NCBI GenBank assembly: GCA_001773385.1
Contig: MEWJ01000032.1
Coordinates: forward strand, 1-49,280
DNA: 49,280 nucleotides
Direction of reading: 5' to 3'
Origin: a candidate division WWE3 bacterium RIFOXYD1_FULL_43_17
Lineage (GTDB): Bacteria > Patescibacteriota > WWE3 > UBA101185 > UBA10185
The position numbers were made by a program, and so were the translations under genes. Numbering within the stretch: position 1 is the stretch's first letter; the number at the start of each line of letters is the position of its first letter. Positions 190 to 25,023 of the stretch are shown piece by piece. The notes beneath the pieces were generated by a model that saw only the letters and a program-made list of their open reading frames with translations, made no database searches and had not been told where the DNA came from.

Positions 190-190
190 A

Positions 191-3676: not shown

Positions 3677-5180
3677 TCAGAAAAATAATAAATATGTGAT
3701 GTATTGTAGAAAATCTACTGATGAGTCTAATAAGCAAGTGCAGTCTTTAGCAACACAATGGCGAATGCTAACCGATTTCGTTAAAGATAACGACCTTGAT
3801 TGTTCGTATTTTTTCCAAGAAGCAAAAAGTGCCATGGACGAAAATAATAGACCTGATTTTAACAAGATGGTTGAGTTAATAACCGAAGGTAAGGTCGATT
3901 CAATACTAGTTTCGCACCTTGACCGACTTAGCAGGAACAGGGTTGAGATCGGCAGATTGATCCAGCTATACCAGAAGGGGAAACTTAGGGAAATTAGAAC
4001 TCCATACCGCAGATATAACACAAGCTACGACATATTCTCTATGGACTTTGAATTCATGGTTTCCGCTCAGTACTCGGATCGTTTATCCATGCGCGTAAAA
4101 GAAGGTAATCAATCTAAAGTATTAAAAGGCGAGTTTCCCGGTGTAGCAAAAATTGGTTATTTAAACAGAGATCGTAAGATTGTTCCGGATCCCCTGACTG
4201 CTCCGTTTATCAAGTATGCCTTCGAGATCTTCTCCCAAGGTGGTGTTAGTCTCCGCATTCTCTCCGAAACTCTCTACGATCGGGGCCTACGCACAAGAAA
4301 CGGTAAAAAATTGCACGTCTCGGGTGTGGAGAGAGTACTAAAAGCTCCCTTTTACGTCGGGAAGTTTTATTTCAACGGAGTTTTGTACAAAGGTTCGCAC
4401 ACACCACTTGTCTCCGAGGAATTGTTTTGCAAGGTACAAGAGATGTTTAAAGACAGATCTAAGCCTAGACCATCTTTTCATTTTGAAACGTTTCCGTATC
4501 GGGGGTATTTAAAGTGCGAAGTATGCGGTTGTGCAATAACGGCTACCCGAAAAAAGGACCACAATTACTATTTCTGCACGAACAGAAGAAACAGGTGTGA
4601 CCAACACAAAACATATATGAGGGAAGAATATATAGATGTCGTCATTAATAAGTTTTTCGAGCATATATCTTTCGATAAAGAGATGGCAGATAAATCCCTA
4701 GAAATATATGTTTCAAAATTACAGAGCGAAGTGAGTGTAGCAGAGGATAATGAAAAGAAGATTAAAAATCAGGTTAGTTTACTCACCGAAAAGAAAGAGA
4801 TACTTGTTGATTTACTCTTGAACAAAAACATAGATAAGAAATTATACGAAAGTAGAGCTTCTAAAATTGATACTGAGATTAAGGAACTAGAACGTGGATT
4901 GATAAGAAAAAATATTGAGAATGTAGAGTCCGTACGAAACTATGTTGGAACCATAAAAAATACCGGTATATCAATTAAAGAGATGCTAGAGTGTGGAGAT
5001 ACCGAGGTTAGAAAAGATCTGTTAAGTTCGCTATGTTGGAACCTTTCTATAAGGGATGGAGAAATAGCGTCAGTACAATATAAAATGCCTTGGAAACTAT
5101 TCGAAAATGTATCAAAATCTCGGGAAATTGATAAATGGCTGTTCATCGGGGAACAAGTTCGAACTGCTATTTTAGTGTAA
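3657..5180 (+). CDS. Large serine recombinase A (resolvase + recombinase + zinc-ribbon + coiled coil)
   Basis: YCRKST catalytic motif, LDRLSRN, CEVC...YYFC...C zinc ribbon, coiled coil; overlaps rep by 20 nt. Confidence 0.93.
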   Translation: MNLTDHDQKNNKYVMYCRKSTDESNKQVQSLATQWRMLTDFVKDNDLDCSYFFQEAKSAMDENNRPDFNKMVELITEGKVDSILVSHLDRLSRNRVEIGRLIQLYQKGKLREIRTPYRRYNTSYDIFSMDFEFMVSAQYSDRLSMRVKEGNQSKVLKGEFPGVAKIGYLNRDRKIVPDPLTAPFIKYAFEIFSQGGVSLRILSETLYDRGLRTRNGKKLHVSGVERVLKAPFYVGKFYFNGVLYKGSHTPLVSEELFCKVQEMFKDRSKPRPSFHFETFPYRGYLKCEVCGCAITATRKKDHNYYFCTNRRNRCDQHKTYMREEYIDVVINKFFEHISFDKEMADKSLEIYVSKLQSEVSVAEDNEKKIKNQVSLLTEKKEILVDLLLNKNIDKKLYESRASKIDTEIKELERGLIRKNIENVESVRNYVGTIKNTGISIKEMLECGDTEVRKDLLSSLCWNLSIRDGEIASVQYKMPWKLFENVSKSREIDKWLFIGEQVRTAILV

Positions 5181-5186
5181 AACCAC

Positions 5187-5471
5187 TTAGTACACTGTTT
5201 GAGGTTTTATATTGCAGTTAATTCGAATCCAGTCTAAGTCGTAGTCCCCCATTTCTTGTCTTTCTCCATCAATAACAAAATATTGGCGTAAGTTCACTGT
5301 TTTATCATCTTTAACACTTGGCATTTGGTTATCAATCCATGCATCTGGACACACTCTTTTTTTACCGGAAATTATAGATGTGTTGCGGGTTTTAAGAATT
5401 AGTAGAACAAAGGTCAGCGATACAACAACCAGGAGTATGCTAAATATGATTCTTTTTATAGGACTGCTCAC
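5187..5471 (-). CDS. Small membrane-anchored protein, translationally coupled to the giant protein
   Basis: N-terminal TM helix, CPDAWIDNQMP...WIRINC Cys pair; ATGA overlap at 5468-5471. Confidence 0.75.
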   Translation of the reverse strand: MSSPIKRIIFSILLVVVSLTFVLLILKTRNTSIISGKKRVCPDAWIDNQMPSVKDDKTVNLRQYFVIDGERQEMGDYDLDWIRINCNIKPQTVY

Positions 5472-8400
5472 TTTCTTTTTCGTCTAAGAATAATTATGGT
5501 ACCAATACTTAAAACAACCAAGCTAGGAATGATATATCTCCAAATATTTGATTTACGAGTTTCTTCAACAACACTGGGATTATCTTTCTCTACATCTTCC
5601 AAACCTAGTACATTCTTTGTCTCATCACCTGATTCAAGAACCTCGTCAGTAGCCGCAAGAGTTGTGGGACTCTCGTAGGTATTGATAATGACCTTTTCCT
5701 GAGTTGATGGAATCTCTATTGATATTGTCTTCGTGTTGCTTCTGTTACCAGCCCCGTCCTCAGAAACTAGTTTGAAGTAATATGTTTTACCTTCTTTAAC
5801 ATCATTTACTGTCACATCTTCATCGTCCCTATCATTTTCTGCTATTCTTGAGTCGCTATTTTTGTCAAAGCTTTCACTGTATCCAAGATATACAAACACT
5901 TTGTCTATATCGCTGTCATTATTTTCCCAAGTTAATTTTATTGTTTTATCATCGCTGTCGTAGCCTACTCCAACGTTTTCAGGCCTATCTGGGGCTTCTG
6001 TATCTTCTTCTACGGCCTTTTTGGTTGTAAAGCTTAGCTCATCACCTACAACTTCAGGTGACCCATGCGAGACCGCTCTGTAATAATATGTTGTTTCGGC
6101 AGTTAATGGACTAATAGTTACATTATGACTAATTACCATAGGCGAACCATCCGTCTCAATAGTTGAATAAGCATAACCATAGTTTGGAGCTGTACCTAAA
6201 GTTGGATGTGACGCCGTATCATATATTACTCTACTAGTGCTCAGATGATCTGTCGTCCATGTAATTGTTATGCTGGTACTCTCAAGATTAGTAGAACTTT
6301 CCCCTGAAATAACTGGAGGAGGTAATACTGTAATATCTATGGTAGCTTCATTACTGTCATATTCTCCATCGTTTGTTTGGTATGTAAAACTATCGTTGCC
6401 TATATAACCCGTATCAGGTGTATATGTTACTTGATTTCCTGAGACCGTTGATAAGGAACCATTTGTTGGGTCAGAATTAATCGAATAGACAAGTGGATCA
6501 TTTTCAATGTCATTGCCTAATAGGGTTATCGATATCGCTGCCTCTTGAGTAGTTGAGTATGCATCAGCGCTCACGGTTGGTGCATCATTTACAGGATTAA
6601 TGGTTAGATTAACAAAACCCGTGTCTGTTAGAGTACCGTCTGACAGAGTGTATTCAAAACTTGCTGCTCCGTTATAGTTATTTACCGGAGTGAATATAAT
6701 ATTTGAACCGTCTATATAAACTGTACCGTGTGTTGGGGTTGAAACTCCGATAACAGAAAGTGTATCAAGATCAACGTCGGTATCGTTTGTAATTAAGTCA
6801 TTTTTAGCTAATATCAACTGCGTATCTTCGTCAAAAGATGCGTTATCTTGATTTGCTTCTGGAGCGTCATTCACCGAATTCACAGTAATATTTACAGTTA
6901 CGATATTGCTATCAGCCAGACCATCATTAACTTTGTATGTAAATGTATCAACCCCATTATAATTCGTATCCGGTGTATAAGTTAATTCATTTCCTGAAAT
7001 TGTTCCCAAAGTTCCATGATTTGCACCGGTTTCAACTGTATATGTAAGAGTGTTTGCTGGAATATCAGCATCGCTAGCATTTAAAATAATGCTTTTTGAA
7101 ACGTCTTCATTTGTTGATGTGTTTACATCTTGTGCAACTGGAGAGGTGTTAACTTCATTAACTGTAATCTCTATTTCCTCAGAATCAGTGTAAATTCCAT
7201 CAGTTACATTAACAGTAACATTATAAGTATTAGGTCCTTGTACCTCTGTAGGTGTAAAACTAAAATTGCCTGTATCAGATTCTATTGAAGCTCCTGTTGG
7301 TGCATTTGTTAGAGAAAGTTCAAGAGCATCGCTTGTATCAGAATCGTTTGCTGTAACCGTAAAGCTAAGTTCTGCTAACTCATCAATAGATTTATCGCCA
7401 ATTACATCAAGAGCTGGTAGATCATTTATAGCATTGATTGTGATAGTAACTGTACCTGTGTTACTTTCAAAATTACCATCGTCCACCTTGAATGTAAATG
7501 AATCGCCACCAAAGTAGTTTTCATTAGGAGTGTAAATGACTTGATTTCCGTAAGGTCCTCCAAGCGCTCCGTTAGATGTACTATCTATTATTGTATAAGA
7601 TAAACTATCACCCTCAATATCTGTACCTACTAAGTATATTGAAACTGAATTATCCTCGTCTGTAACAGCAGTACCATCATTAACAGAAGGCGCATCATTT
7701 ATAGGATTAACTGTTACTAAAACGGTAGTTGTATCTGTTAACGAACCGTCGGAAACAGTGTAATCAAAGCTTGCTGATCCAAAATAATTAGAAGTTGGAG
7801 TGAATATAACATTAGAGCCATCAATAGATACCAATCCGTTTACTGGGTTAGAAATTGAACTTAAAACTAATGAGATATCGTCAACATCAGTGTCATTTTC
7901 AATTAGAGTCTCTTTTGAAACGGACAAAGTATTATCTTCATCAACAGAAGCAGAGTCGGGATTTGCTACGGGGGCGTCATTGAAGGCGGTAACAGTTATA
8001 AATACAGTTGCGGTATTGCTATCCGTTTCGCCATCATTTGCTTTATAAGTAAAGGAATCGTCGCCGTAAAAATTTGCATTTGGTGTATAAGTAGCACTGT
8101 CATTCAAAATTGAAATCGTACCGTTAGATGGATCTGTTACCTTTGCATACGTAATGGATTGCGTAGGAATATCAGAATCTGTAGCATTAAGCGTTATAAT
8201 TTTTTCCAAATCTTCCGATGTTGCGGCATTAACATCGTTCACTAAAGGAGCTACATTTATCTCATTAACGGTTACAGTTATTATTTCAGTATCTATGCTT
8301 ACCCCATCCGTAACATTTACATCAAACGTGTATTCCTGAGGACCTTGTGACTCTGAAGGAGTAAAGCTGAAATAACCACTGTTAGTATCTATAGTGGCTC

Positions 8401-11400
8401 CCGTGGGCTCATCACTAAGGTAATAGGTTAAAGAACTATCAGGATCTGTAGCAGTTGCTGTGAAAGTAAGTTCAGTTAATTCGTCTACCGATTTATTGCC
8501 AATTTCATCTAACACCGGAGGGTCATTAAACTCTGTCACGGTTATATCAATTGTCGCGATGTTACTATCTAACAACCCATCATTTACTTTAAAAGTAAAA
8601 GAATCGTTGCCTTCGTAATTTTCGTTAGGGCTGTAGTCTACTTGACTACCAACTATACTACCCAACGAACCATTAGATGGGTTATCTACGATAATATAGC
8701 TTATTGAATCCCCATCAACGTCACTTCCCGTCAAGGTAATTGTAACAACGCCATCTTCCTCCGCAGAAGCTGTACCCAAGTTAGCTACAGGAGCGTCATT
8801 AATTGGGTTTATTGTAACGGTGACTGTTGCTTTATCAGTTAACTCACCATCAGAAACAGTGTAATCAAAATATGCAGTACCGTTAAAATTACTGTCAGGA
8901 GTGAATACAACGTTATCACCATCTATAGCAACACTACCATTTACAGGGGTTGATACATTACTTAAAGTTAAAGTAACATCATCTACATCTGTATCATTTG
9001 TTAATAGGCCACTTTCTGCGATTATTGTGTCTTCATCTTCATTACCAGAGGCACTGTCTGGGTTTGCATCGGGACCATCATTAATTGCGTTTACTGTAAT
9101 GTGAACTGTTTCTGAACTACTATCGGTAACGCCATCGTTAGCTTTATAAGTAAAGGCATCATCACCATAATAGTTTGTGTCAGCCGTGTACGTTACCTGA
9201 TCCCCAGCAATTGACACTAATCCGTGCGATGGGTCGGTTACAGAATAATTTAATGTTTGCGTTGGTATATCTGTGTCATTACCTTCGAGAGTAATAACTT
9301 TAGCAGTGTCTTCATTAGTAGTAGCCCACAATTCGTTAACAACCGAAGCCACATTTACCTCGTTCACGGTAACGGTTATTGTTTCGACATCACTATCTAA
9401 TCCATCGGTAACATTTATATCAACATTATAGGTATTTGATCCCTGGCTCTCTACGGGTGTAAAACTAAATTCTCCTGTAGATGAATTGATAGAAGCCCCT
9501 GTTGGTGCATTGGAAAGTGAGAAGGATAAAACGTCTTCTGTGTCCACCTCAACTGCTGTAGCAGTGAAGTTAAGTTCATTAAACTCATCAATCGTTTTAT
9601 CTCCTACTGTATTTAAAACCGGAGCATCATTAATTGGGTTTATAGTAATAGATACCGAAGCGGTATCAGTCAATTCACCGTCTGTTACAGTGTAAGAAAA
9701 GCTTGCAGAGCCGTTATAATTTGAGCTTGGTGTGAATACAACATTATCACCATCTATTTCAACTGTACCGTTTACAGGATCAAAAACTATTGATAACGAA
9801 AGGCTATCTTCATCTACATCCTCGTCATTAGCTAGTAAAGACGCTTTAGTTATGACCAAAGCGGAATCTTCATCAGTAGAGCTGCTATCGTCATATGCCA
9901 CTGGCGCATCATTAATTGAATTTACTGTAATTGTTACAAGTCCTGTGTCTGTCAAACTACCATCAGATATTAAATATTCATAGGTTGCTTGTCCATTAAA
10001 ATTCTCAGGTGGCGTGAATTCAATTGTACTGCTATTAAATGTGAGAACACTCCCTGTAGGTGTAACATTGCTTACACTTAAAATACTGAAGTCATCTGTT
10101 GTATTATCCGGATCGGTATCATTTGATAATAGATATGCATGATTTACCAAAAGTGTGGAATCCTCGTTAACATCCAAATTATCATCAGTGGCAATAGGGC
10201 TATTGTTTATCTCGTTAACTGTTACTGAAAAACTTTCAGTAGCAATATTGTTTATTTCAAAACCATCATCTACTTGGATAGTAAAATCAAATACGCTGCC
10301 TCCCTGACTTTCATCAGGAGTAAAGTTAAATTCACCTGTTTCAGTGTTTATTGACGAATTATCAACAGAAGAATTTGTAAGTGAATACGAAGGTGCTCCA
10401 CCATCTACATCTGTTACAACAGGAGTAATTTGTAAATTATAATATTCGTCAATCGTTTGGTTTGGGATACTTTCTATAACTGGCGCATCATTAATGCCTG
10501 TAATTGTTAAGGATACCAAAGCGTCGTTACTATCTACAGACCCATCATTTACTACAAATTCAAAAGAATCACTGCCATTGTATCCGGGATTTGGTGTATA
10601 GGTTGCAACATTACCGTCGATATCTACATTACCGTGCACAGGAACAGTACTAACTATAAATGTAAGAATATCGTCTTCGGGATCTGTGCCATTTAAGCCT
10701 ATATCCACTGAATTATCTTCATCAGTTTCGGCTGTTGTTCCATATGCTGTAGGAGCGTCATTTACCGCTACTATATTAACCGTTACATTCTCAGTCGCAG
10801 AGAATGATGGATCTGCACCATCCTCTACTTTAATAGATAAAACGCACGAAGCAGATGGTACGGGTCCATTAGGAGTAAATGAATAGTAACCTGTGTTTGT
10901 ATCTAATGATCCGTTGCATGTATCTAACTCTGTTTTGCTCCAACTGGCACTTGGTCCATCTGGGTCTGTTACTTCAGCATCATATGTATAAAGAATATCT
11001 TCGGTGGCCGTTATTGGTGCGGTACTATCTATAGACGGGGCATCGTTTATAGAATTTACGGTAATGTTTACTGTGGCACTGTTGGTTAAATATCCATCCG
11101 AAACAGTATATTCAAAGCTTGCGGATCCAAAATAATCTGTAGATGGTGTAAATACAATATTAGCCCCATCTATATAAACAGTTCCATTAATTGGTTTAGA
11201 AACACTTTGAACATTTAATAAGGAGTGATCGTCATCAACATCAGTATCGTTAGTTAATACTTCATCCTTAGTTAAGATTAATTGTGTGTCTTCATCTGTG
11301 GAAGCTGAGTCAGAATTAGCTGTTGGTGCATCATTGATAGGATCAACTGTAATAGTTACAGTTGCATTCTCACTATAATCTGTACCATCACTTATTTTAT

Positions 11401-14400
11401 AAACAAAGGTATCGATACCATAATAGTTGGTGTTAGGTGCATAACTAAATGAGCCATTATTATTTAGTGATAAGTCACCGTTAGTTACATCAGAGACAAG
11501 AGCCGTGGATATACTTGAATTTTCAGGGTCACTATCATTACTCAGTATTCCTGGAGCTGTAACATTAAGAACAGAGTCTTCATCAGTTGAATAATCATCG
11601 CCTGTACTAATTGGTAAATCATTTACAGCAGTTACTGTTACTGTAGTTGTTTGAGTATCAGACAGATTTGGTGATCCGTAGTCACTTATGGTTACAGAAA
11701 CTTCACATGTAGAAATTGGGGTTGGTCCAACTGGTGTAAATGTATAAACTCCCGAAGAAGAATCTAGCGAACCATTACAAGTATCTGATGCTGATTTTGT
11801 CCACACAGCACTGGGTCCGTCTACATCTGTTTCGTCAGCATCGTATGTGTAAAGCGTATCTTCTGTAGCTGAGTTTGGCGCGGTTGTATTAATTGAAGGT
11901 GCGTCATTAATTGAGTCTACCGTAATTGAGACTGTGGCAAAGTCACTGTCGGCACTGCCATCGTTAACTTTGTATGTAAATGAATCAGAACCATTATATT
12001 CGGAATTTGGAGTATATGTTGTTTGCCCACTACTAATAGGTCCTAAACTTCCATGGGTTGGGCTTGTTCCCAAAATGTAGCTAAATGTGTTTCCTGGAAG
12101 ATCGGGATCAGTTACATTTAATGTAATGTCTTTTGATCTATCTTCATCTGTTGAAACACTAAAGTCATTTACGACAGGAACTACATTAACCTCGTTTACT
12201 GTGATAGTAATGTCTTCTGTATCACTTGTATTACCGTCTGTTACTGAAACGGTTAAATTATATGAATTAGGTCCTTGGCTTTCTGTTGGAGTGAAGGTGA
12301 AGAATCCTGATGTTGACCCAATAGAAGCTCCTGTTGGTGCATTTATAAGCGAGTATGTTAGTGAACTATCTGGATCAGCTGCGCTTGCAGTGAATGTGAG
12401 TGTATCAAGTTCATCGATAATTTTATTCCCAATCGCATCAAGTATCGGAGTATCATTTATAGCCCCAACAGTAATACTTACGGTTGCAGTGTTACTATCA
12501 AGAAACCCATCGCTTGCTTTAAATGTAAAGGAGTCTCCGCCAACGTAATCAGTATTAGGTACGTAGTTTACTTGAGTACCTGAAATTATTTCTAAAGAGC
12601 CATGTGTTGGCGCGTCTATTAAGTTAAAGCTGAGGCTATCTTCATCAATATCATTGCCAGTGAGCGTAACTAATACCTCAGTGTCTTCATCAATAGAAAT
12701 TGATTGAGAATTGGCAGTAGGTGCGTCATTCACAGAATTAACAGATATACTCACTGTAGCTGTATTACTATCAGCATTCCCATCGTTAGCTTTATATGTA
12801 AATGAATCAGGCCCGTTGTAATTTTCGTTTGGTGTGTATAAAACTTGATTTCCGGATACTGTGCCAAGATTCCCATGACTTGCGCCAACTACAATTGAGT
12901 AACTTAAAGAATTTGCTGGTTCATCAGTATCTGTAGCATTCAGGGTTATTGCTTTGCTGTCATCTTCATCTAATGAATCACTTACGCCGTAAGAAACAGG
13001 TACTACATTAACCTCATTTACAGTTATTGTAATGTCTTCGTAATCAATGTTTGACCCATCTGTCACAGAAACAGTCATATAATAGTTATCGGGTCCTTGG
13101 CTTTCTGTTGGAGTGAAGGTAAATACACCACTAGTTGGGTTTATTGATGCTCCACTTGGTTCATCTGTAAGATAGTAAGTTGTAGAGGGCCCATCTGGAT
13201 CAGTGGCAGAAGCTGTGAATGTTAACTGTGTTAATTCATCAACAGTCTTATTGCCAATTGGGTCAAGTACAGGTAGTACCTCATTAACATTAATAGTGTA
13301 TGTCTTTGAAGTTGTACCATCTTGAGCAGTAACTATTAATTCATTGCCAGTTAATATTGGGTCGTTTAGATTCGTATCACTCCAAGTTTGATTGGGCTCA
13401 TCCTTTGTTAATGCTGCTAAAAATGTTGCCTCTGAGGTATTAAATGGGACGTTAGAAATAGTATCGAGTTCAACTGTATAAACTCCTGAAGATACTGTAG
13501 CTATGGTGCTAGGAGACTCTACTGTTACGGTAACAACATAATCCTGTGTAGTACTATTAACAGCGGTTACCGTATATGTAACAGGGCTCGAGAAATCCTG
13601 TGCTACTTCGGAGGGCGGACTTACCATTTCCCCAGTATGTGTAATTGTTGGAAGTAACGAAGATATGTTGGTTCCATAGGGTACTACAAGGGAAATTGTA
13701 TGTTCGTTTTCATTGATAATACCGGTAATTCCCAAGGAATTAAAGTTAAATGAAACGATATCCTTTGAGCCATTTAGTGATCTAACGGCATTATAAGCAT
13801 TTATCCTTTTTCCTGTAACGGTTTTACCAACTAAGCTCGGTTTTGTATCCCCAGTATTTAAAATTGCATTCTTTACTTCATCATAAGTTAGTGAACTATC
13901 TATACTCCATAATAGTGCCGCAAGACCCGCTGTGTATGGTGCAGCAAACGAGGTCCCGTCTACAAATTCGTATTCATATGAACCAGCTGCTCTTTTAAGT
14001 AGAACAATGTCGTCTATTAAACAACCATCCCCGTATGTTCCTTTATCGGAATCGGAATCTGTTACCCATCTAAATCTTAATTTAAAATTACTTGTATAAA
14101 AATCCGATGCGATCGATGCTGTCATGTAAGCGGATGCGTAGCCGCCATCATCCAGTTCATCACCATTGAGAATATCTATCATGGGTTCATCATATTTTCC
14201 TTCCCCCCACCCAAGATCTACCTCACTAAAGTTTGTTCCGTCAGAACTTGCTTCAACAACCATATAATCATGCCAACCATCTAATGGATACTCAGTATCG
14301 CACTCTGTATAGAAACCAATAGCAACATCACTCGCTCCATCTAGATTCACTGTTGAAGTTGTTATTTTACTATTGTTATTTTCTGAATATGGATATTCTA

Positions 14401-16201: not shown

Positions 16202-16337
16202 CTTAATTTATAGTACTTTTAGGTACTACCTATATAATATATTGCTAGGGCGGGAGATACAAGAGATTTATACACCAATTAGGAAGCATATGCAAACCTA
16301 TAGTTGGTATTCCAAAGTGATCTTCGTTCTGCTTGTT

Positions 16338-16357
16338 TTTTGTAGTATTTTGTAGTT
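16338..16357. promoter_or_regulatory. 10-bp direct repeat (TTTTGTAGTA TTTTGTAGTT), putative operator in divergent promoter region
   Basis: Reverse complement (ACTACAAAA x2) resembles the ACTACGAA repeats at 19551-19580. Confidence 0.4.
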
Positions 16358-16397
16358 TTTTACAACAATAGGTGCCTTTTTAAGATAAAATGTAGCC

Positions 16398-16889
16398 ATG
16401 AACATACTTGAAACAAAATCCTATGTGGAGAGCTTTATAGCGTCTTCAAATGGAAAGAAATATACGCCAGATGAGATGATTAATATGATAAAAAAATATA
16501 CAAATATTACGCTTGGCGATGAAAACCCTGTATCAGGAACTCCAAGTCTTGGATATATTAACTCCAATATTAAAGGGGTTTATTACATAATTTACTGTGA
16601 TGCGTGTAATGCAAAGTGTAGAAAATCCTACCCTACTATTCTAAACATTAACGGGAATAAGGTCATGAAGTTTTTATGCGGTAGCTGTGCGGGTAAGAAA
16701 TATGAGCGTAAAAAGGAGTATGAACGAAAAGCTTTAGAATATCTACTTCACCCCGAAAAGCTTGGTTCTATGAACTACCGTAATCTTTCACTTAAACAAA
16801 GCCTAGCGATATTAGAAGCAGGTTTTATTGAAGATAAGATAAGGGAACGAGCCGAAAAGAACGCATCAAAGTATTTAGGCGATAGCTGA
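16398..16889 (+). CDS. Hypothetical protein with CxxC...CxxC zinc finger
   Basis: CDAC and CGSC motifs; TAAAAT 6 nt upstream of ATG. Confidence 0.7.
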   Translation: MNILETKSYVESFIASSNGKKYTPDEMINMIKKYTNITLGDENPVSGTPSLGYINSNIKGVYYIIYCDACNAKCRKSYPTILNINGNKVMKFLCGSCAGKKYERKKEYERKALEYLLHPEKLGSMNYRNLSLKQSLAILEAGFIEDKIRERAEKNASKYLGDS

Positions 16890-16957
16890 TTGCACATATA
16901 AATTAATTGTGTTTTTTCATTGTTCCTGTGCAGTATTAGCGGTATAATTGTGTTAGT

Positions 16958-17386
16958 ATGACGGAAAAAAACGAAATGCAAAACAATGAGGAATTAAAGA
17001 GTAAATTTATACAAGAGCGTGCAATCGGCAAATCTTTTAAGGAGATATCAACAGAACTAAATTTACCAGTTGAGACCCTTGTAGTTTGGGCAAAAACTTT
17101 GAAGTATGACATCGGTAATCAAAAAGCTATTGAGATGGATGAGCTCTCAAATAAGTTTAGAATAACGAAAAGACGAAGAATAGAGCTTATTGGCAGCATC
17201 CTTACTAAAATGCAGGACGAACTCGACACACGGGATTACAAAGATGTTCCAACCGATAAACTGTTTGATTATCTTCTCAAGTACTCTGCAGAACTCAACA
17301 GGGAATATACACCGCCTGTATTTACCGAAATCGTCTCAGGTATGGGTCCTAGTATATGGGAAACCGAAATAACGTGGACTGGCTAG
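16958..17386 (+). CDS. Helix-turn-helix protein
   Basis: RAIGKSFKEISTELNLPVETLVVW HTH pattern followed by helical region. Confidence 0.7.
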   Translation: MTEKNEMQNNEELKSKFIQERAIGKSFKEISTELNLPVETLVVWAKTLKYDIGNQKAIEMDELSNKFRITKRRRIELIGSILTKMQDELDTRDYKDVPTDKLFDYLLKYSAELNREYTPPVFTEIVSGMGPSIWETEITWTG

Positions 17387-17430
17387 AATCTAAATTGTAA
17401 AAATATATCTGCCCAAATATTAAAATTAAT

Positions 17431-19548
17431 ATGAACAAAGACAGGTTATTTGAGAATCTAGTAAATAAGAATAATTTAGAAAAAGCATTTGACTATCTTT
17501 TAGTTGAAATAGAGAACTCTAGTCTTGCAATTGACCCTATATGGACCCCCGCACTGCAAGCAATAAAAAAAAACAGAAAAACATATTTCAACGCACTAAG
17601 TGAACTCCTTATAAACGGATACTTCCAAGCAGACAAAGCAAGATATTTTAAATTTCCGAAAGACAATTTGGGAATTAGGCCGGTCGCAATACTATCTATA
17701 ACAGACAGGATTATCTACCAAGCTATATTTCTTAAGCCCGTATTAGGTAACGTCTTAAAGACTAAATATACACAACCGCCTTGTTATACACCAAACCTAT
17801 CGTCAGAAACAGAAAAAACATATTTAGAAGACTGGCACCAGAAATGGGATGATTACATTAACGATCAAGTTAAAGCATATAGAGACGGTTATATATACAA
17901 AGTAGACCTTGATGTGAAATCATTTTTCGATAACATCAACCACGAACTAATAAAAGATTTTTTAGTGAAAGAATGTAATGTAAACGGAACAAAGGTATTA
18001 GAGATACTTATGAACCTGCTTTCGACCTGGGCACATAAACCTGGTTTTGGTGTTCCCCAAGGACCTGAAGCTTCTATATTCATCGCATCGGCTTTTCTCT
18101 CGCAACTTGATGATAAAGGTATTTCGTTAAGCTCGGAGTTAGAGTTTAGACAATTTAGATACAATGACGACATTTGTTTGATGGCAAAAACCCCCGAAGT
18201 ATTACACCAACTAATAGAAGTACTTTCAAATTATCTTTTTGATATATTTCTAGAACTAAATGGTAAAACTTCATTTTGTCTACTGGACGAGGGCGAACTA
18301 TTAAAGTTAGCAAAACGACGCATTTACTCACCTTATGGTATTAATGAAGATTCTTTATACACAGTACTTAACATTGAGAACTCCATACCAGATTATTTAA
18401 TCAAACTTAGAAATAATCGGCAATTAGAACAGTATGAGGTATCAGCACTTAAATATTATCTTAAAGGCGCAAAGAATAGAGCTTACTGTACCCGTTTTAT
18501 CGACCTGCTTGATAAATCTCACTCACTCTCACTTTACATTTGTAGGTATGTCCAAAAATTTGTAGACGATGCGTCTGTTTATAATTACTTGTGTAAAACA
18601 TATAGCGAAAAACACTTATATTCATGGTCTAAATTTTGGGTGCTTAAAACGCTAATTTCATCTAAACACTTTCAAGATAAGAAAAATTTAGAAAGTTCTA
18701 AAACCCTTGTATTAAACGGCCTGAACGATAAAAGTTGGGAAATAAGGTCATTGTGCCTGTATATTGCCGAATTATTTGGATTTATAAGCGATTCAAGTGC
18801 GCTAATCAGTAAACTCCACAAATCAGCAGATAACATCTTTGAAAAAAGTATGACCACTTATTTATTGGGAAGTAAGAATGAATCAGGGATGATGTCTGAC
18901 TTACTAAGAAGTAACTGCACAGATTTACAAATAATTGCTTTTAGTGCCCTAAATAAACCAGACTTATCAAACTTACCCAATGACCTATCACCATTTAGCC
19001 AATATTTATTAAAAATTAACAACACTAGTACTGTATCCAGTAGTACATCAGTTATTCAACACTCTCTGCTTGATTTAGTAAGTGAGTGTGGGGCTGTGCA
19101 TATAAGTTTAGATACAACTAAACTAAGCAAAGAGCTTGGGTTAACTTGGAATCAAAATAATAGCGGGAAGCTTAAAAGGTCTAAAAAAATTGTACATTGG
19201 GTAGAACTAAACTATTCTGGAGAACTAGTGATGGACAGTGCTTATATTCTATCGAAGCCGAATATTGATAGTGAAAATGAATGTTTCATTTCCTATGTTA
19301 TCAATCGTTCTGGCAAGAATATAACTAAAAAAGATATTGAGAATGACCAAAATATTAAGATAACAAGGTCTTTTAACAACATATTAAATGATTTGGGTTT
19401 TAAGGGTGAGATAAAAAAGCTGTTCTTCCCGATAACAAGTGCGGGAGAAGTGAGGTTTTTCAGAAAGTTGAAGCAGATAGATGTCACATCGTCCTCCATA
19501 GACGAAAAGAAACTGGAGAAACAACTCAAAAAACTCAGACCCTTTTAA
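17431..19548 (+). CDS. Reverse transcriptase (UG/Abi-like architecture) with alpha-helical repeat region and extra C-terminal domain
   Basis: PKDNLGIRPVAILSITDRIIYQA, DLDVKSFFDNINH, GVPQGPEAS, catalytic RYNDD (18160-18171), LELNGKT; HEAT-like segments; Ser/Thr linker; C-terminal about 115-aa domain. Confidence 0.88.
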   Translation: MNKDRLFENLVNKNNLEKAFDYLLVEIENSSLAIDPIWTPALQAIKKNRKTYFNALSELLINGYFQADKARYFKFPKDNLGIRPVAILSITDRIIYQAIFLKPVLGNVLKTKYTQPPCYTPNLSSETEKTYLEDWHQKWDDYINDQVKAYRDGYIYKVDLDVKSFFDNINHELIKDFLVKECNVNGTKVLEILMNLLSTWAHKPGFGVPQGPEASIFIASAFLSQLDDKGISLSSELEFRQFRYNDDICLMAKTPEVLHQLIEVLSNYLFDIFLELNGKTSFCLLDEGELLKLAKRRIYSPYGINEDSLYTVLNIENSIPDYLIKLRNNRQLEQYEVSALKYYLKGAKNRAYCTRFIDLLDKSHSLSLYICRYVQKFVDDASVYNYLCKTYSEKHLYSWSKFWVLKTLISSKHFQDKKNLESSKTLVLNGLNDKSWEIRSLCLYIAELFGFISDSSALISKLHKSADNIFEKSMTTYLLGSKNESGMMSDLLRSNCTDLQIIAFSALNKPDLSNLPNDLSPFSQYLLKINNTSTVSSSTSVIQHSLLDLVSECGAVHISLDTTKLSKELGLTWNQNNSGKLKRSKKIVHWVELNYSGELVMDSAYILSKPNIDSENECFISYVINRSGKNITKKDIENDQNIKITRSFNNILNDLGFKGEIKKLFFPITSAGEVRFFRKLKQIDVTSSSIDEKKLEKQLKKLRPF

Positions 19549-19550
19549 AA

Positions 19551-19580
19551 GACTACGAAGTACTACGAAACCCTATGAAA
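19551..19580 (+). promoter_or_regulatory. Triple 10-bp phased direct repeat upstream of replication operon
   Basis: GACTACGAAG TACTACGAAA CCCTATGAAA directly after the RT stop codon. Confidence 0.5.
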
Positions 19581-19619
19581 CAGGGCATTTATACCCCATA
19601 CCGTTGATATTCTGTCATT

Positions 19620-19877
19620 GTGAACGACAGAATTAATAATAAACAAATTAATACATATAGAAGCACCGATTTAGCAATCACAAGCTTTTTATCGCTTTCC
19701 TTTAATCTCATAGCATTGGAAAAAGTTGAGGGTAATCGTTATGAATTTGTGTTTGAACGTACACCAGAACTAGAGAAAGCAATAGAATCCTTTTTCAACA
19801 ATACCGCAAAAGTTAGTCCCACAGATTATTTCAATTCAATAAAAAGTATCAAATCGAGGATTTATTCCAGGAGTTAA
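19620..19877 (+). CDS. DUF5659-like protein
   Basis: YRSTDLAITSFL...LEK....YEFVFE.TPELEKAIESFF....VSP..YFNSIKSIKSRIY pattern; GTG start. Confidence 0.7.
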   Translation: MNDRINNKQINTYRSTDLAITSFLSLSFNLIALEKVEGNRYEFVFERTPELEKAIESFFNNTAKVSPTDYFNSIKSIKSRIYSRS

Positions 19878-19879
19878 AG

Positions 19880-20086
19880 ATGTTGCCTGTTCAAGCAGTT
19901 ATTGAGTGGAAAGAAATATACAAGAAGACAACAGGAGTTGACCTAAGCATTGAGGACGCCACGGAAAGGGCAAATAGGATGTTTAGATTTTTATCGAATA
20001 TTACGAAGCCGAAAAGAAGTAGAAAATTAAAAATTTTTGAAGGGGGTGATAAAGATGGCAAGAAAACTAACAGTAAAAAAGTCTGA
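19880..20086 (+). CDS. Small hypothetical protein of integrative element
   Basis: 68 aa, in operon between DUF5659-like gene and SSB-like gene. Confidence 0.65.
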   Translation: MLPVQAVIEWKEIYKKTTGVDLSIEDATERANRMFRFLSNITKPKRSRKLKIFEGGDKDGKKTNSKKV

Positions 20087-20438
20087 ATCTATCAAGCCAA
20101 TTCCAGGTGATGTTTATCCTGCTAAATTGGTCCGAATTGATGACGGAGAAGGAGGTTTTGGCGAGTATTACAAATTTGTTTTCGAGATATCAGAAGAATC
20201 TGCGTATCAAGGGGAACAAAGAACATTGCTTGCAAGCCGTAAGCTATCCAGAAGTCCGAAAGGCGAAAGTAAGCTTCTAAACATTTTAGAGGTATTAGCA
20301 GGCAACAAACTGGAGTTGGAAGAAGAAGTTGATGTTGACGATTATGTTGGAAAGAAATGCCGAATCTTGGTTGAGGAACCAAAAGAAAGAGACGGCATGA
20401 TTATCCAAAATGTCACGCAAGTTCTACCTACAAAGTAG
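20055..20438 (+). CDS. Putative ssDNA-binding OB-fold protein (DUF669-like)
   Basis: PGDVYPAKLVRI...YYKFVFEI...YVGKKCRILV pattern; SD GGGGGTGA before ATG at 20055. Confidence 0.55.
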   Translation: MARKLTVKKSESIKPIPGDVYPAKLVRIDDGEGGFGEYYKFVFEISEESAYQGEQRTLLASRKLSRSPKGESKLLNILEVLAGNKLELEEEVDVDDYVGKKCRILVEEPKERDGMIIQNVTQVLPTK

Positions 20439-20449
20439 TATTTAATTTT

Positions 20450-20486
20450 GGTCGGGGGCATTTGCTTGTACCAAGTGTCCCCTACC
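20450..20486 (+). other. GC-rich hairpin between SSB-like gene and primase
   Basis: GGGGCATTTG...CAAGTGTCCCC imperfect inverted repeat; no U-tract on + strand. Confidence 0.45.
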
Positions 20487-20504
20487 TACAAAGAGATTTA
20501 ACAA

Positions 20505-22859
20505 ATGAATTATACCAATAATGAATATATAAAAGAACCTGCGGAGTTCCTAACCGATTGGGGTATCAATTATTCTGATACCAAAAAGGAACTTCGAACC
20601 CTGTGTTTATTTAGTGACTGCGATTCGGATAAATCTGACTACAAACTAGGTCATCTATATATTTCGTCAACCACAGGGCAATATAATTGTAAAAAATGTA
20701 ATGCTACGGGAAATCTCGTGACATTAGCAAAACATTTAGGCATTGATGTTGCTACCCTATATCAGAAGCAAGGCAGGATTAAAGCACGGACTAAAAAGGC
20801 GGAGGTAAAAAACGGGCAACCTGAAAAGGTTTACGATGACGATTTAACTAATGAAGCAGTCGAATGTCATGAGGAGCTTACTACTGCTCATCGCCAATAC
20901 TTTGTAGACAGGGGGTTATCCAATGAAACAATTGATAAATACCTGCTAGGAGAAGCCGAGGTGGGTGGTTTGCAATGGTTAACAATACCCATATTTGATG
21001 AAAATAATCGAGTAATATTTTTTAAGCTAAGAAGACTGCCAGAACAGGAAGAAACTAATCCTACAAAATATAGATATACGAAAGACGCCGAAGCTAGTGT
21101 TTACGGTGTAGAAATTCTAAAAGATGTGTTAAATGAGCCAGTCATTATTACCGAAGGTGAACTTGATTGTCTTGTATTAAGGGATTTAGGTTTTAAGGCT
21201 GTATCTTCTACTGGTGGTGCAGGTACTTTCAAAAATAAATGGGTAGATTACTTTGATAAGGTCTCTGCTGTATTTTTTGCATTTGATAATGATGAAGTTG
21301 GAATTCGTGAAGCCGTTAATCACGCCAAACTGTTTAGAAACAAAGACGTCTATATAGTAGATATACCTAAAATTGAAGGCATAAAAGACATTTCTAACTA
21401 CAGAACAAGTCAAAAGACTAAGGAAGATTTTGAAAAATTACTAAAAGAAGCTAGAAAGTATGACCCCTATAAGTTAGAGTTTTCAGGTATTCAGTTTGCA
21501 GATGCTTTAACAGAATTTATTCCCGCACAGTATTTCACTTCGAATAATGCATATTTGACCCTACAACTGAATGTTAAAAATGAGGATACCGTGGATAAAG
21601 AGACCTATGTAATCAACTCTGAAAGGCAAATAGTCCCTTTAGGTTTATTTCTTAAGACGAATAACTATCTTTCTACAAGAGAACCAAAATTTCCTCAAAG
21701 ATGGTCAACTGAATCATTGGATAGATATTTGAAGAAAAACGATATATCATTAGACTACTTTTCTTTACTTGATAAAACCGTCGGGACGCTAAAATATTAT
21801 CTGGACCTTAATCACGAGGATTGGTATCTGGTTGTAGCTCTCTGGGTTTGGGGAACATACTTTTATAGGCTTTTCGGTTCATATCCCTATTTCAACATCA
21901 ATGGACTTATGAACTCAGGCAAGACAAAACTGCTTGAGTTATGCAGTGAGCTGGCTTTCAATGGTAAATTCTTAATGGGTAGCACTCCTGCTTTTGTTAT
22001 AAGGGAAATACACGAAAATAGTTCTACGATATTTTTAGATGAGGTGGAAAGCCTAAAAAAGGCTTCTACACCTGAAGCACAAACATTGTCCTTAATGCTT
22101 AATTCTGGTTACAAGGCAGGTCCACGAGTTGGAAAAATGCAACCTACAGGTACAAAGGGTTGGGATTCAAAAGAATACGACCCCTACTCCCCTAAAATGA
22201 TTGCAGGCATAAGCGATGTGTCCGAAACATTACAATCCCGTTCCTTAAACTTAACTATGCTTGCAAGCAACAATAAGGAAATTAAAAACCGAGAGCTTGA
22301 AACAACTTCACGTTCTTTCAAGGAGTTAAGAGACGGTTACTACTTATCCGTGATGGACCTGCATAAAGAAATGTTCAAAACATATAAGACATTAACAGAA
22401 ACCAATATTCAGGGACGAAATTGGGAAGTGTGGCGACCCATTTTTACATTGGCAAAAGTTATTGATGATAGAACCCAGCGAGATGGTTTAACCTACAACT
22501 TGGTTAGAGATTTTGCTTTAGACCGAATACATATCGCATCTAGTGTATCTGCCGATGACCAAACTGTAATTCAGCTACTTTTAGCCTTAAAAGACATGAT
22601 GGAAAGTGAGACAAAACGAGAGGCATTTTATCCGACAATAAATCTTAAGACTTTTTTGAAAACAGAGCATGCCGATGACTTTGGATGGCTAGAAAGCACT
22701 AACTATATAGGCGTATTGCTTAGAAGGTCTGGTGTAGTTCTACAAGGGTCTGAAATAAGACGATTAGGCGGTAAACCAATGAGAGGTTATCTTTTGAACC
22801 TAGATGTAATAAATGAGCGACTAAAAGCCTTGGGATTTGAATATGGCGAAATCAAGTAA
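20505..22859 (+). CDS. Primase-helicase fusion (Zn finger + TOPRIM + P-loop ATPase)
   Basis: C....C...H......CKKC zinc finger; ITEGELD and AFDND TOPRIM motifs; Walker A GLMNSGKT and Walker B IFLDE. Confidence 0.85.
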   Translation: MNYTNNEYIKEPAEFLTDWGINYSDTKKELRTLCLFSDCDSDKSDYKLGHLYISSTTGQYNCKKCNATGNLVTLAKHLGIDVATLYQKQGRIKARTKKAEVKNGQPEKVYDDDLTNEAVECHEELTTAHRQYFVDRGLSNETIDKYLLGEAEVGGLQWLTIPIFDENNRVIFFKLRRLPEQEETNPTKYRYTKDAEASVYGVEILKDVLNEPVIITEGELDCLVLRDLGFKAVSSTGGAGTFKNKWVDYFDKVSAVFFAFDNDEVGIREAVNHAKLFRNKDVYIVDIPKIEGIKDISNYRTSQKTKEDFEKLLKEARKYDPYKLEFSGIQFADALTEFIPAQYFTSNNAYLTLQLNVKNEDTVDKETYVINSERQIVPLGLFLKTNNYLSTREPKFPQRWSTESLDRYLKKNDISLDYFSLLDKTVGTLKYYLDLNHEDWYLVVALWVWGTYFYRLFGSYPYFNINGLMNSGKTKLLELCSELAFNGKFLMGSTPAFVIREIHENSSTIFLDEVESLKKASTPEAQTLSLMLNSGYKAGPRVGKMQPTGTKGWDSKEYDPYSPKMIAGISDVSETLQSRSLNLTMLASNNKEIKNRELETTSRSFKELRDGYYLSVMDLHKEMFKTYKTLTETNIQGRNWEVWRPIFTLAKVIDDRTQRDGLTYNLVRDFALDRIHIASSVSADDQTVIQLLLALKDMMESETKREAFYPTINLKTFLKTEHADDFGWLESTNYIGVLLRRSGVVLQGSEIRRLGGKPMRGYLLNLDVINERLKALGFEYGEIK

Positions 22860-23002
22860 CATTTGTAACACCTACGCTTATACATTGTCACAGCGACAAT
22901 ATTTCCCGTTACAAAAATGTTACACATCAAGATGTAGTATTTGTAACATTTCTGTTACAGGCTTATTTGTTGTCGCTAAAGGATATTATGTTTAATGTAA
23001 CA
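22856..23002. repeat. Iteron-like GTAACA/TGTTAC cluster, putative replication origin of element B
   Basis: GTAAC(A) or its complement at about 22856, 22865, 22908, 22918, 22942, 22953, 22996 in both orientations. Confidence 0.65.
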
Positions 23003-23242
23003 AAAATACAAAAATATGAGGACTTAACAAAACTTAACATTTCAGAGCTTATGGTATATGAGATTGAACTTCAGTCTTACCTTCAAACACACGAGCCCGA
23101 TATGTCAAAACAAGGAACAGTGGATGTAAATGACAGACCTTTTGACAGACAACTTTATGAAGAAAAGAAGCAACAATGGTATTCAATTTGGGTCGAGTAT
23201 TTTACGCGACCTGTTGAGGAAGGACTAGATATTAAGTTATAA
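22967..23242 (+). CDS. Small hypothetical protein
   Basis: ORF between primase and LSR; start uncertain (ATG at 22988 possible), overlaps repeat cluster. Confidence 0.45.
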   Translation: MLSLKDIMFNVTKIQKYEDLTKLNISELMVYEIELQSYLQTHEPDMSKQGTVDVNDRPFDRQLYEEKKQQWYSIWVEYFTRPVEEGLDIKL

Positions 23243-23344
23243 TTTTAGTGTTGAATAGATTTAGTTACGAATGTGTAAATAGCCGTATTGGTATAAATGC
23301 ATTCGTGCATCTATTCAACAACCAGTACGGCTTTTTATATTAAT

Positions 23345-24991
23345 ATGGATTTTTTAGTAAACAAAGATATACAAAATAAAAACGGCATTGAATACTGTAG
23401 AAAATCTACGGAGTCAGAAGACCGCCAAGCCTTTTCTCTTAAAGACCAACATGATGTCAATTTTAAAGTAGCGGAAAGATATGGTGTAAAAGTTAAAAAA
23501 TCGCTTCAGGAATCAATGTCTGCCAAGAAAAGAGGAAGACCGTTTTTCAATGAAATGGTTGCAAGTGTTGAAAGTGGTAAATATGAAGTCATTGTATGTT
23601 GGGCATTAAACCGTTTAGCCCGTAATTCAGTTGATGGTGCGATGCTAATTGAGTTGATGGATAATAAAAAGCTTCATGCAATTCTAACTCCTGGAAAAGT
23701 CTACTATAACAGTGGCGACGACAAGCTGTTACTTCAAATAGAATTTGGATTAGCTAAGAAATATTCCGATGATTTAGGACCTACTGTGTTAAGAGGTATG
23801 TATTCAAAGCTTAAGCGTGGTTGGTATCCTGGTCCTGCAAAGCCTGGTTATATCAATAGAAAAGAAAAAGGCGAAATAATACAGGTAATAGATGAAGAAC
23901 GATTTCCACTATTAAGAAAGGGTATTGAAATGTACCTAGAAGGAGCAAGAGTCGAACATGTACTTGAGCTACTAAATGATAAGTGGGGTTATAAAACCAT
24001 ACAAACTGAAAAAACAGGAAATAAACCTTTATCAATATCAAGCTTTTATCGAATACTAAACGACAGTTTTTACTTTGGAAAAATAGTGTGGAACGGTGAG
24101 GAAGGTGAGCTTAATCCCGAAGTACCAAAACTTGTGTCCGAGAAAGAGTTCTGGGATATACAACGAAGACTTGGTGCAAAAGGTATTTCAAGACCTTCAA
24201 AACACATGGAAGTCCCCTACCGAAGCATCATTAAATGTTCAGAGTGTGGAAGCGCCATAATCACTTACCCCAAAATTAAGAAACTAGCTTCAGGAGAAAC
24301 AGTAGTTTATTTATATGCTAAATGTTCAAGCAAAAAACATTGTACACAGAAGCACATCTCCGTTTCAAAAATTGAAAAGCAACTTAATGAGATTGTGAAA
24401 ACCGTAGAAGTGTCTCAAGACTTCCATGATTGGTTTTTGAAATGGCTAAAACACGACCATCAAGTTGAAACTACTGAAACCGAAGTTCTACTACAAAGAA
24501 TAGACGCACAGATTGAAATCCAACATAAACGAAGAAATAATTTATTTGAGATGAGACTTAATGGCGAAGCGGTTGAAGTTGAGTATAGGACCAAGAAAGA
24601 AGAAATCGAAGTTGAAATCAAAAGATTGGAAAAAGAAAGAGCGGGGGTTAAGTACGCGTCTGACGATTGGATTAAAAGAGCTGAAAAACGCATTAACTAC
24701 GCTTTATACGCAAGAGACACTTTAGAAAATGGTGATTACTTACAAAAATCAAGTGTACTTTCGGATTTGGGTTCGAACTTTTTGCTAAAAGAGGGTTTAC
24801 TCTTTGCTGACATAGACCCGATGCTTGCCGTCTTCAAAAAACACTATGAAATTGTTAATAAGGATTTAATAGGGTTCGAACTGGAAGATAAGTTGTTAAA
24901 TCAAGCTAACTCTGAAATTTTGAAATCATGGCTGGGGGATAGGGATTCGAACCCCAATAGGCGGGACCAAAACCCGCAGTCCTACCGTTAG
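23345..24991 (+). CDS. Large serine recombinase B; C-terminus read antisense through tRNA-Gln
   Basis: YCRKSTE motif, LNRLARN, CSECGS...C....C zinc ribbon, coiled coil; ends WLGDRDSNPNRRDQNPQSYR; alternative start 23297. Confidence 0.93.
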   Translation: MDFLVNKDIQNKNGIEYCRKSTESEDRQAFSLKDQHDVNFKVAERYGVKVKKSLQESMSAKKRGRPFFNEMVASVESGKYEVIVCWALNRLARNSVDGAMLIELMDNKKLHAILTPGKVYYNSGDDKLLLQIEFGLAKKYSDDLGPTVLRGMYSKLKRGWYPGPAKPGYINRKEKGEIIQVIDEERFPLLRKGIEMYLEGARVEHVLELLNDKWGYKTIQTEKTGNKPLSISSFYRILNDSFYFGKIVWNGEEGELNPEVPKLVSEKEFWDIQRRLGAKGISRPSKHMEVPYRSIIKCSECGSAIITYPKIKKLASGETVVYLYAKCSSKKHCTQKHISVSKIEKQLNEIVKTVEVSQDFHDWFLKWLKHDHQVETTETEVLLQRIDAQIEIQHKRRNNLFEMRLNGEAVEVEYRTKKEEIEVEIKRLEKERAGVKYASDDWIKRAEKRINYALYARDTLENGDYLQKSSVLSDLGSNFLLKEGLLFADIDPMLAVFKKHYEIVNKDLIGFELEDKLLNQANSEILKSWLGDRDSNPNRRDQNPQSYR

Positions 24992-25002: not shown

Positions 25003-25023
25003 ATACTCAAACAAACACAAGAA

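Follow-up and report, generated by a model that had tools for sequence, protein, structure and literature searches.

Element-specific words shared by the coding ends of tRNA-targeting large serine recombinases and the far arms of their elements

Why should the gene of a large serine recombinase (LSR) carry, close to its 3′ end, short exact repeats that are read in different frames and that recur at the opposite end of the same mobile element? This question is raised by a contig of candidate division WWE3 bacterium RIFOXYD1_FULL_43_17 (GenBank MEWJ01000032.1, 49280 nt, hereafter the window), which is one whole contig of a genome of 863 kb in 59 contigs. The window holds two such genes, LSR-A (3657–5180) and LSR-B (23297–24991), both on the forward strand, as are all features below unless stated otherwise. 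The original prediction regarded the repeats as accessory, arm-type sites under selection at the DNA level, by which each recombinase would be linked to the other end of its own element. Comparison with related elements supports the selection and the link, assigns the far copies to an ordinary half-site motif, and makes additional recombinase binding sites a candidate role for the copies inside the genes.

Repeated words at the ends of two tandem elements

In LSR-A, the 13-mer CTATGTTGGAACC occurs exactly at 4940–4952 (copy A1) and 5031–5043 (copy A2), and in LSR-B the 11-mer GGGTTCGAACT occurs exactly at 24769–24779 (copy B1) and 24872–24882 (copy B2). The corresponding words at the far ends of the two elements are GTTGGAACCTT at 179–189 and GTTCGAACT at 5157–5165, the latter extending to GTTCGAACTG at 5157–5166. 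All of these positions had been given correctly by the original prediction, and the copies of each pair are indeed in different frames. Counted from the junction cores described below, A1 at -192 is read as YVGT in frame 0, A2 at -101 as LCWNL in frame 1, B1 (as GTTCGAAC) at -158 as GSN in frame 1 and B2 (as GTTCGAACTG) at -55 as GFEL in frame 2.

When up to one mismatch is allowed, CTATGTTGGAACC has only its two matches in the window against 0.03 expected, while GGGTTCGAACT has three against 0.75 expected, a number that was reached in 5 of 100 shuffles. The window contains 12 exact direct repeats of at least 11 nt that are no more than 150 bp apart, most of them due to tandemly repeated tRNA-Val sequence, and 200 second-order Markov simulations of the window gave means of 2.06 repeats of at least 11 nt and 0.155 repeats of at least 13 nt per window. 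Since 86% of the simulations hold at least one repeat of 11 nt or more, the B pair is not significant alone, and with at least one repeat of 13 nt or more in 14% of the simulations, the A pair is only mildly unusual from the window alone. This favors a null reading, in which chance repeats are combined with ordinary amino-acid constraint, and so does the placement of A2 and B1 on one conserved protein motif and of B2 on another. Against this reading, the 8-mer GTTGGAAC occurs exactly three times in the 49280 nt, at 179, 4944 and 5035, and the 8-mer GTTCGAAC likewise three times, at 5157, 24771 and 24874, in every case at an element end and at the predicted place. The significance of the words rises because these 8-mers are found only at element ends and because related elements conserve and co-change the words.

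The window from 1 to 24934 is a tandem array of three integrative elements, Z, A and B, at the CCA end of a tRNA-Gln gene. In the searched range of 1–25100, TGGCTG, the reverse complement of the tRNA-Gln 3′ end CAGCCA, is present only at 158–163 (junction of Z and A), 5136–5141 (junction of A and B) and 24929. Furthermore, a metagenomic homologue of LSR-A (L078, 86% nt identity) tracks the window to 5141 and diverges thereafter, with tRNA-Gln coming next. The array is deduced from these observations and from the boundary at the tRNA described below. From core to core, element A spans about 164–5141 (4978 bp) and element B about 5142–24934 (19793 bp), followed by tRNA-Gln(ttg), which was located by ARAGORN at 24929–25002 on the reverse strand. 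Of element Z only the right end, the P arm, is seen (1–157), as it is truncated by the contig end, and the native left flank of the array lies on another contig, C15. The Z arm GCTATGACAACAAAAAC, directly before TGGCTG, recurs beside tRNA-Gln in genome G080 and at 144–173 of contig C58 of the same genome as the window. On C58, this 30-nt arm is followed by another arm like that at the left end of A (C58:144–210), a repetition that probably explains the contig break.

The crossover falls within the common core TGGCTG. No displaced 3′ fragment of tRNA-Gln(ttg) was found in the window, in the whole genome or in the contig of a relative of element B (G023:C11), so that such a fragment was rejected as the far end of element B and the crossover was placed at the CCA end of the tRNA. 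In four genomes of the same genus, tRNA-Gln(ttg) is identical at 72–73 of 74 nt (by eye), with differences only at 24987 and 25002, and their similarity to the window ends at 24923–24929, the tRNA 3′ end; in genomes of other genera with LSR-B, the tRNA-Gln sequences differ from that of the window. Together with the missing displaced piece, this leads to the conclusion that the whole tRNA is host DNA, acting as the B′ arm of attB.

The recombinase-distal arm of attP, P′, lies at 164–205 for element A and at 5142–5180 for element B. In frame from the core TGG (158 and 5136, respectively), these arms encode WLAAWKLVGTLLINN and WLFIGEQVRTAILV, each followed by a stop. Arms like P′ of A occur in two copies in locus L079 and once at C58:174. 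Homologues of P′ of B are present in G023, where WLGIREQVRTAVLV and a stop are encoded, and in locus L082, and differ mostly at third codon positions. P′ has just 6–10 nt in common with the tRNA end. The word at 5157–5165 lies in the P′ arm of B and thus belongs to element B and not to the site of LSR-A itself.

LSR-A (507 aa) and LSR-B (564 aa) are large serine recombinases, and all tested domain features agree with this. The resolvase catalytic domain PF00239 is found with E values of 5.7e-18 and 4.1e-16, respectively, and both proteins also match PF07508 (Recombinase) and PF13408 (Zn_ribbon_recom); the Zn_ribbon_recom score of LSR-A (26.3 bits) is above and that of LSR-B (22.6 bits) is below the Pfam gathering cut-off of 25.3. 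Y16, R18, K19 and S20 are invariant across 29 LSR sequences, as are the zinc-ribbon residues C287, C290, C307 and C314. Sequence matches in the PDB include the SPbeta and A118 integrases, and the AlphaFold2 model of LSR-A (mean predicted local distance difference test score, pLDDT, 84.8) has the long helices 341–388 and 394–415 of a coiled-coil insertion. LSR-B-like genes are present in 47 of 88 genomes of the same order, the present genome included. For closer LSR homologues, a scan of genome contigs gave only one distant (27%) match and a scan of viral contigs with LSR-B gave none. That both genes target tRNAs, as originally proposed, agrees with 32 non-redundant loci in which the LSR open reading frame (ORF) runs at its end into the 3′ end of a tRNA gene that converges with it.

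Pairing between the two ends and constraint at the DNA level

To compare the two ends in related elements, every upstream occurrence of the tRNA-end core was taken at 18 LSR–tRNA junctions and scored by the longest word that the 60-nt stretch following the core has in common with the terminal 260 nt of the LSR gene. At 13 of the 18 junctions, the best word, of 9–15 nt, lies in a P′ arm 4.2–19.8 kb upstream at offsets of +18 to +23, and its partner is found in the LSR tail at -99 to -104, at -200/-201 or at -55 to -68. Element A of the window has a P′/tail word of 11 nt, and at L085 an 11-nt P′ match is tied with two other 11-mers elsewhere. Overall, a clear shared word of 9–15 nt at the expected P′ offset is present in 16 of 26 related elements. 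The pairing was found in the clade with Rep and LSR genes and in the Gln/Ser clade, and not in elements of the Pro (0/3 clear), Asn (0/1) and Trp (0/4) types.

For 16 arm–tail pairs, the cognate word lengths sum to 168 compared with 118.0 ± 7.1 for permuted pairs, and none of 100000 permutations reached 168, although these figures overstate independence because the elements are relatives, and two of the P′ arms (L087 and L088) had been picked by the word match itself. Words of at least 9 nt occur in 14 of the 16 cognate pairs. In the controls, the figures were 3 of 16 (reverse complements), 0 and 1 of 16 (two upstream gene windows) and 2.75% (shuffled arms). Two of the three reverse-complement matches are the palindromic B word, while the third, in L098, lies at -249 and was discarded as a likely chance match.

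A tandem array of three LSR elements at tRNA-Ser(gga) in another genome (G078:C24; L084 and L104, about 10636–22343 of the merged stretch) served as a prospective test of cognate matching. In this array, each LSR reads into the P′ arm of the next element. The P′ arm of the second element shares 11 nt with its own LSR and only 5 and 7 nt with the other two, and that of the third shares 10 nt with its own LSR compared with 6 and 6 nt; a third, weaker match is 8 nt long. The arms match the LSR that reads into them poorly (5–7 nt). An outer P′ arm in L091 (10795) was dropped as a second test of this kind, as it belongs to a segment without an LSR. The cognate pairing and this array bear out the original claim that the words are element-specific and link the end of a recombinase gene with the other end of the same element.

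The words differ from element to element and are the same at both sites: GTTCGAACTG, TATGTTGGAACTT, TTGGAACTTTT, TTGGAAATTA (in L087), TTGGAAAATATCTAT (in L088), AGTTAGAACCTAT, GTTAGAACTA and TGTTGGAAT. In L092, GGAAT is found at the P′ and the internal site alike, and in L088 the shared word is read as WKISI in one frame and as IGKYLS in the other. This co-change of the P′ and internal sites persists where residues change in either frame or in both. The A-type word is even read in three frames in the Rep+LSR clade, as TLEL at -201, as LWNL at -100 and as VGT in P′. LSR-A and L078 keep the upstream copy as YVGT, while the aligned DNA word of their relatives is read as TLEL in another frame.

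Codon usage and alignment point in the same direction. Of 29 genes, 25 gave a position for the motif, although two of these positions were wrong and added nothing to the counts; at the motif column, Ser is encoded by TCG in 9 of 9 cases compared with 9.0% gene-wide (82/910), and Asn by AAC in 16 of 17 cases compared with 44% gene-wide (397/906). An alignment of four LSR-B tails has 279 columns, 61% of them invariant, and its two longest runs without any change are 24871–24897 (27 nt), which covers B2, and 24764–24781 (18 nt), which covers B1; a run of 27 nt was reached in 3 of 20000 column shuffles. In the AlphaFold2 model of LSR-A, A2 lies in a C-terminal beta-hairpin (460–475, strand 460–466) and A1 in the helix after the coiled coil. 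Since both copies would thus be in structured parts, the words are predicted to cost the protein freedom.

Judged from frame shifts, codon bias, invariant runs and co-change through amino-acid changes, the internal copies are maintained as DNA sequence and co-vary with the P′ copy, as the original prediction had suggested from the frames. The null reading would leave unexplained that the copies lie in different frames, that they co-change with a non-adjacent arm even through amino-acid changes, that no permutation attains the cognate score and that the codons are biased. We consider it very improbable.

A different explanation without any function is that the words are by-products of short-patch recombination or slippage between the ends, or that P′ arms were rebuilt from LSR tails during array rearrangements. 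Decayed pieces are in fact abundant in such arrays. A remnant of LSR-B in G069 (C168; L033, aligned to 24780–24871) has a clean 103-bp deletion exactly between the copies of GGGTTCGAAC, B1 and B2, and an early stop. In L082, a mini-remnant at 2985–3150 consists of an arm like P′ of A joined at GTTGGAACCTT to the last ~100 nt of an LSR-A-like gene. Both deletions run exactly between copies, as this explanation would predict. However, they destroy the recombinase gene and look like costs of the repeats rather than their causes. In addition, the flanks of the identical stretches are unrelated, and these stretches of only 9–15 nt are short for RecA-type conversion. Neither position nor orientation varies, with the P′ word at offset 21 in 16 of 16 arms, and the words persist over clades at 30–45% protein identity with biased codons (TCG in 9 of 9). 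An origin as a by-product is therefore judged unlikely.

Possible roles of the distal and internal copies

A118-type integrases recognize a 9-bp motif of the zinc-ribbon domain (ZD) at positions 16–24 of the attP half-site, which lies 5 bp further inward in attB (PMC3783163). Here, the word xTTxGAAy begins at offset 21 in 16 of 16 P′ arms, and its counterpart in the T-arm of the tRNA begins at offset 16 in 11 of 11 tRNAs matched by the pattern. For tRNA-Gln of the window, the T-arm word is ATTCGAAC at 24945–24952 (offsets 16–23), and the P′ word (offsets 21–28) is exactly 5 bp further out, in line with the ZD shift. The same spacing puts the central dinucleotide inside TGGCTG, in agreement with the mapping of the junctions. 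Since their offsets, +21 in both cases, fit the ZD rule, the words at 179–189 and 5157–5166 are ZD-type motifs of the P′ arms of A and B and not the distant arm sites that had been proposed. We infer that the P′ copy is the ordinary ZD motif of its half-site, which would mimic the T-arm of the tRNA. Of the extra sites predicted about 50–200 bp from the crossover, the internal copies in the coding ends thus stay as candidates (55–200 bp), whereas the P′ copies at their normal outer position, 21–28 nt from the core, drop out. The possibility that the internal copies are themselves T-arms of fossil tRNAs was rejected, as no flanking stem complements are visible on inspection and ARAGORN finds nothing there.

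For the internal copies, we see about an even chance that they are extra binding sites of the LSR, with the word read by the zinc-ribbon domain. In this model, the recombinase would read one copy of the word in P′ and one or two more, in the same orientation, inside the 3′ coding end of its own gene. Acting in cis, the internal copies would give the recombinase-proximal end the element-specific word that the distal end also bears, and might help the recombinase to pair its own two ends in arrays whose junction cores are identical. Alternatively, they could serve in direction control or in feedback on LSR expression. A more far-reaching version treats the ZD word as an element-specific barcode, iterated proximally inside the recombinase gene and present once more in the distal arm, so that recombinase bound at all copies would bridge its own ends and excise its own element from arrays with otherwise interchangeable cores and tRNA-like arms. 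We offer this version tentatively, as a possibility that is rather doubtful at present.

A protein different from the LSR could also recognize the words, for instance a directionality factor, a replication protein or a factor of the host. Direct repeats about 76–138 bp apart resemble iteron-like arrays, and small unannotated ORFs are present in both elements. However, the replication modules of A and B differ (Rep compared with a reverse transcriptase (RT) plus a Toprim protein), yet the layout of the words relative to the LSR gene and the core is common to both, and the P′ copy sits exactly where the ZD of an LSR is expected and resembles the T-arm of the target tRNA. A foreign binder thus seems improbable to us. 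An action at the RNA level is conceivable as well, in which the LSR mRNA would meet, at its internal copies, an antisense transcript that runs outward across P′, or long-range helices would form within the mRNA. Exact identity over 10–15 nt is favorable for base pairing, transcription of the first gene after each left end is directed toward P′ (191–823 and 5468–16201, both on the reverse strand), and inspection shows that, in the mRNA of the integrated element, GGGUUCGAA of B could form 9 bp with the antisense T-arm. In contrast, the A-type word cannot pair with the antisense T-arm, and such a role would not account for the spacing of exactly 5 bp relative to the tRNA T-arm. We therefore think an RNA-level role quite unlikely.

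Several observations weigh against additional LSR binding sites as the role of the internal copies, besides the kinship of the elements and the choice of two arms noted above. Pairing failed in L089 (Ser-gct), L093, L095 and L098 (His, 7 nt only) and was uncertain in L094, that is, in 5 of 18 junctions. It was found in none of five hold-out elements (1 Asn, 4 Trp), some of which have short upstream sequence (4.6–5.1 kb), and was clear in none of the three Pro-type elements; a sixth hold-out element (L022/L102) could not be anchored. The internal copies are lone direct words without an adjacent match to the inner, recombinase-domain (RD) part of P′. In the 25 bp of the P arm beside the core, inspection revealed no inverted copy of the word in A or B, so that attP lacks the quasi-symmetry of canonical sites, in which the motif is present in inverted orientation in both half-sites within ~25 bp. 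Finally, segments without an LSR lie between TGGCTG junctions in arrays (L082 and element Z), one of them with a left arm like P′ of B; if such segments move, the internal copies are not required in cis.

The LSR-less segments have been seen at several places. In L082, an arm like P′ of B follows the mini-remnant, and a 3-kb segment without an LSR then ends at TGGCTG and another such arm (6121). The Z-type element, also without an LSR, is represented by 128–163 of the window, by C58:144–210 and by about 7480–11457 of L074 in genome G080. There, besides the Z-type insert of ~4 kb, tRNA-Gln is present in a second copy, which has diverged and includes 230 bp of the upstream flank.

The position of the core also has a consequence for the recombinase itself, since each LSR ORF crosses the core and attP thereby lies inside the recombinase ORF. 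At LSR–tRNA junctions (loci L003–L059), the CCA of the tRNA is read in frame as Trp in 31 of 32 cases, and the ORF extends beyond this Trp by 12–141 nt into the tRNA (..W LGDRDSNP..). The last 63 nt of LSR-B accordingly come from the tRNA-Gln gene. LSR-A has the Trp (5136–5138), yet no tRNA follows, and its last 14 codons come from the P′ arm of element B; a decayed tRNA was rejected as the source of this tail, since the arm of B that supplies it has homologues in G023 and L082. The P′ arms of B-type in three elements encode WL..EQVRTA.LV and a stop, with changes mainly at third positions, a pattern that suggests translation across attP in the circular form. If so, the LSR tail would switch, being tRNA-encoded when the element is integrated and P′-encoded when it is circular or in an array. 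As the tail is read from the next P′ arm in arrays and circles, the C-terminus of the recombinase would depend on the integration state.

Between its ends, element A carries a rolling-circle-type Rep gene (2810–3676; Pfam REP_ORF2-G2P, E 1.2e-16) and an AbiV-like HEPN gene (1281–1949, reverse strand). In element B, the cargo gene at 5468–16201 (reverse strand), located between P′ and LSR-B, encodes a 3577-aa subtilase with ~20 Big_9/cadherin-like repeats and is missing in the G023 relative, with which only 17408–25003 of the region is common. The conserved backbone of B (17408–24934), collinear with G023:C11 by tblastx and blastn and supported by Pfam hits, comprises the RT gene (17431–19548, 705 aa, conserved with G023), the Toprim protein gene (20505–22859) and LSR-B. 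The AbiV-like HEPN gene of A and the RT of B may be defence cargo. Outside the array, AGCACCTAACGCT occurs twice, 22 bp apart, at 25029–25063, directly upstream of the 5′ end of tRNA-Gln, and may be a promoter or regulatory repeat. At 32766–32958, a unit of 67 bp is repeated 2.9 times in tandem with 97% matching. Each copy includes the 3′ 42 nt of tRNA-Val(tac), the repeats lead into the real tRNA-Val at 32917–32993, and a similar duplication is present in G080.

Comparison with known systems

Serine integrases are prized for genome engineering because they supposedly work on short, simple sites without accessory DNA; the minimal att sites of canonical LSRs such as phiC31 and Bxb1 are ~40–50 bp long. 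A word that is repeated inside the recombinase gene and co-varies with the distal arm suggests a further level of control, over the choice of sites, over direction or over the recombinase itself. Such an arrangement would explain how related elements share one tRNA target in tandem without mixing their ends, and the layout offers directly testable sites with natural variants. A search of the literature, covering the main texts of articles, returned nothing on repeated ZD-type words inside LSR genes and nothing on LSRs of such genomes with tRNA CCA ends as their targets.

The elements share with canonical LSR systems (A118/LI, phiC31 and Bxb1) the enzyme family, with Resolvase, Recombinase, zinc-ribbon and coiled-coil parts, as well as a short core common to both partners and the 5-bp offset between the outer word of P′ and its attB counterpart, as described for ZD motifs (PMC3783163). 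In contrast to these systems, further ZD-type words are found here as direct copies at 55–200 bp on a single side of the crossover, the P half-site has no inverted copy, attP lies within the recombinase ORF, and the target is the CCA end of a tRNA.

As described in the available part of the tycheposon paper (10.1101/2020.12.28.424599), successive integrations at one tRNA give tandem tycheposons separated by a partial tRNA copy, and a minority of them use a large serine recombinase; that part does not mention a repeated word. Tandem elements at one tRNA are common to both systems, whereas here only a core of 6–10 nt is shared and the whole tRNA stays host DNA. The displaced partial tRNA copy that tRNA-restoring islands have at their far end is absent from the present array.

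The position of attP inside a gene, so that integration alters the end of the protein, is known from integration-dependent immunity of mycobacteriophages and from the SSV1 integrase, both of which rely on tyrosine integrases. The predicted switch of the LSR tail between a tRNA-encoded and a P′-encoded form resembles these systems, although the enzyme is a serine recombinase here. In lambda Int, arm sites are read by a separate N-terminal domain and differ in sequence from the core. Like such arm-type sites, the internal copies would be extra recognition sequences away from the core within attP; unlike them, they repeat the outer motif of the half-site itself, and the enzyme family is different.

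The res sites of small serine resolvases contain accessory sites that are inverted repeats bound by dimers (sites II and III of Tn3/gamma-delta, site II of Sin), for which binding has been demonstrated and which are thought to set topology and direction. The layout described here is comparable in that a serine recombinase would be combined with extra sites on one side of the crossover, within ~100–200 bp. It is distinct in that the enzyme is an LSR and the putative sites are single direct words in a coding region, so that the inverted-repeat organization of res accessory sites is lacking and the A word is not palindromic. If the barcode version should nevertheless be true, it would bring a res-like architecture of accessory sites into a family thought to need only ~50-bp sites.

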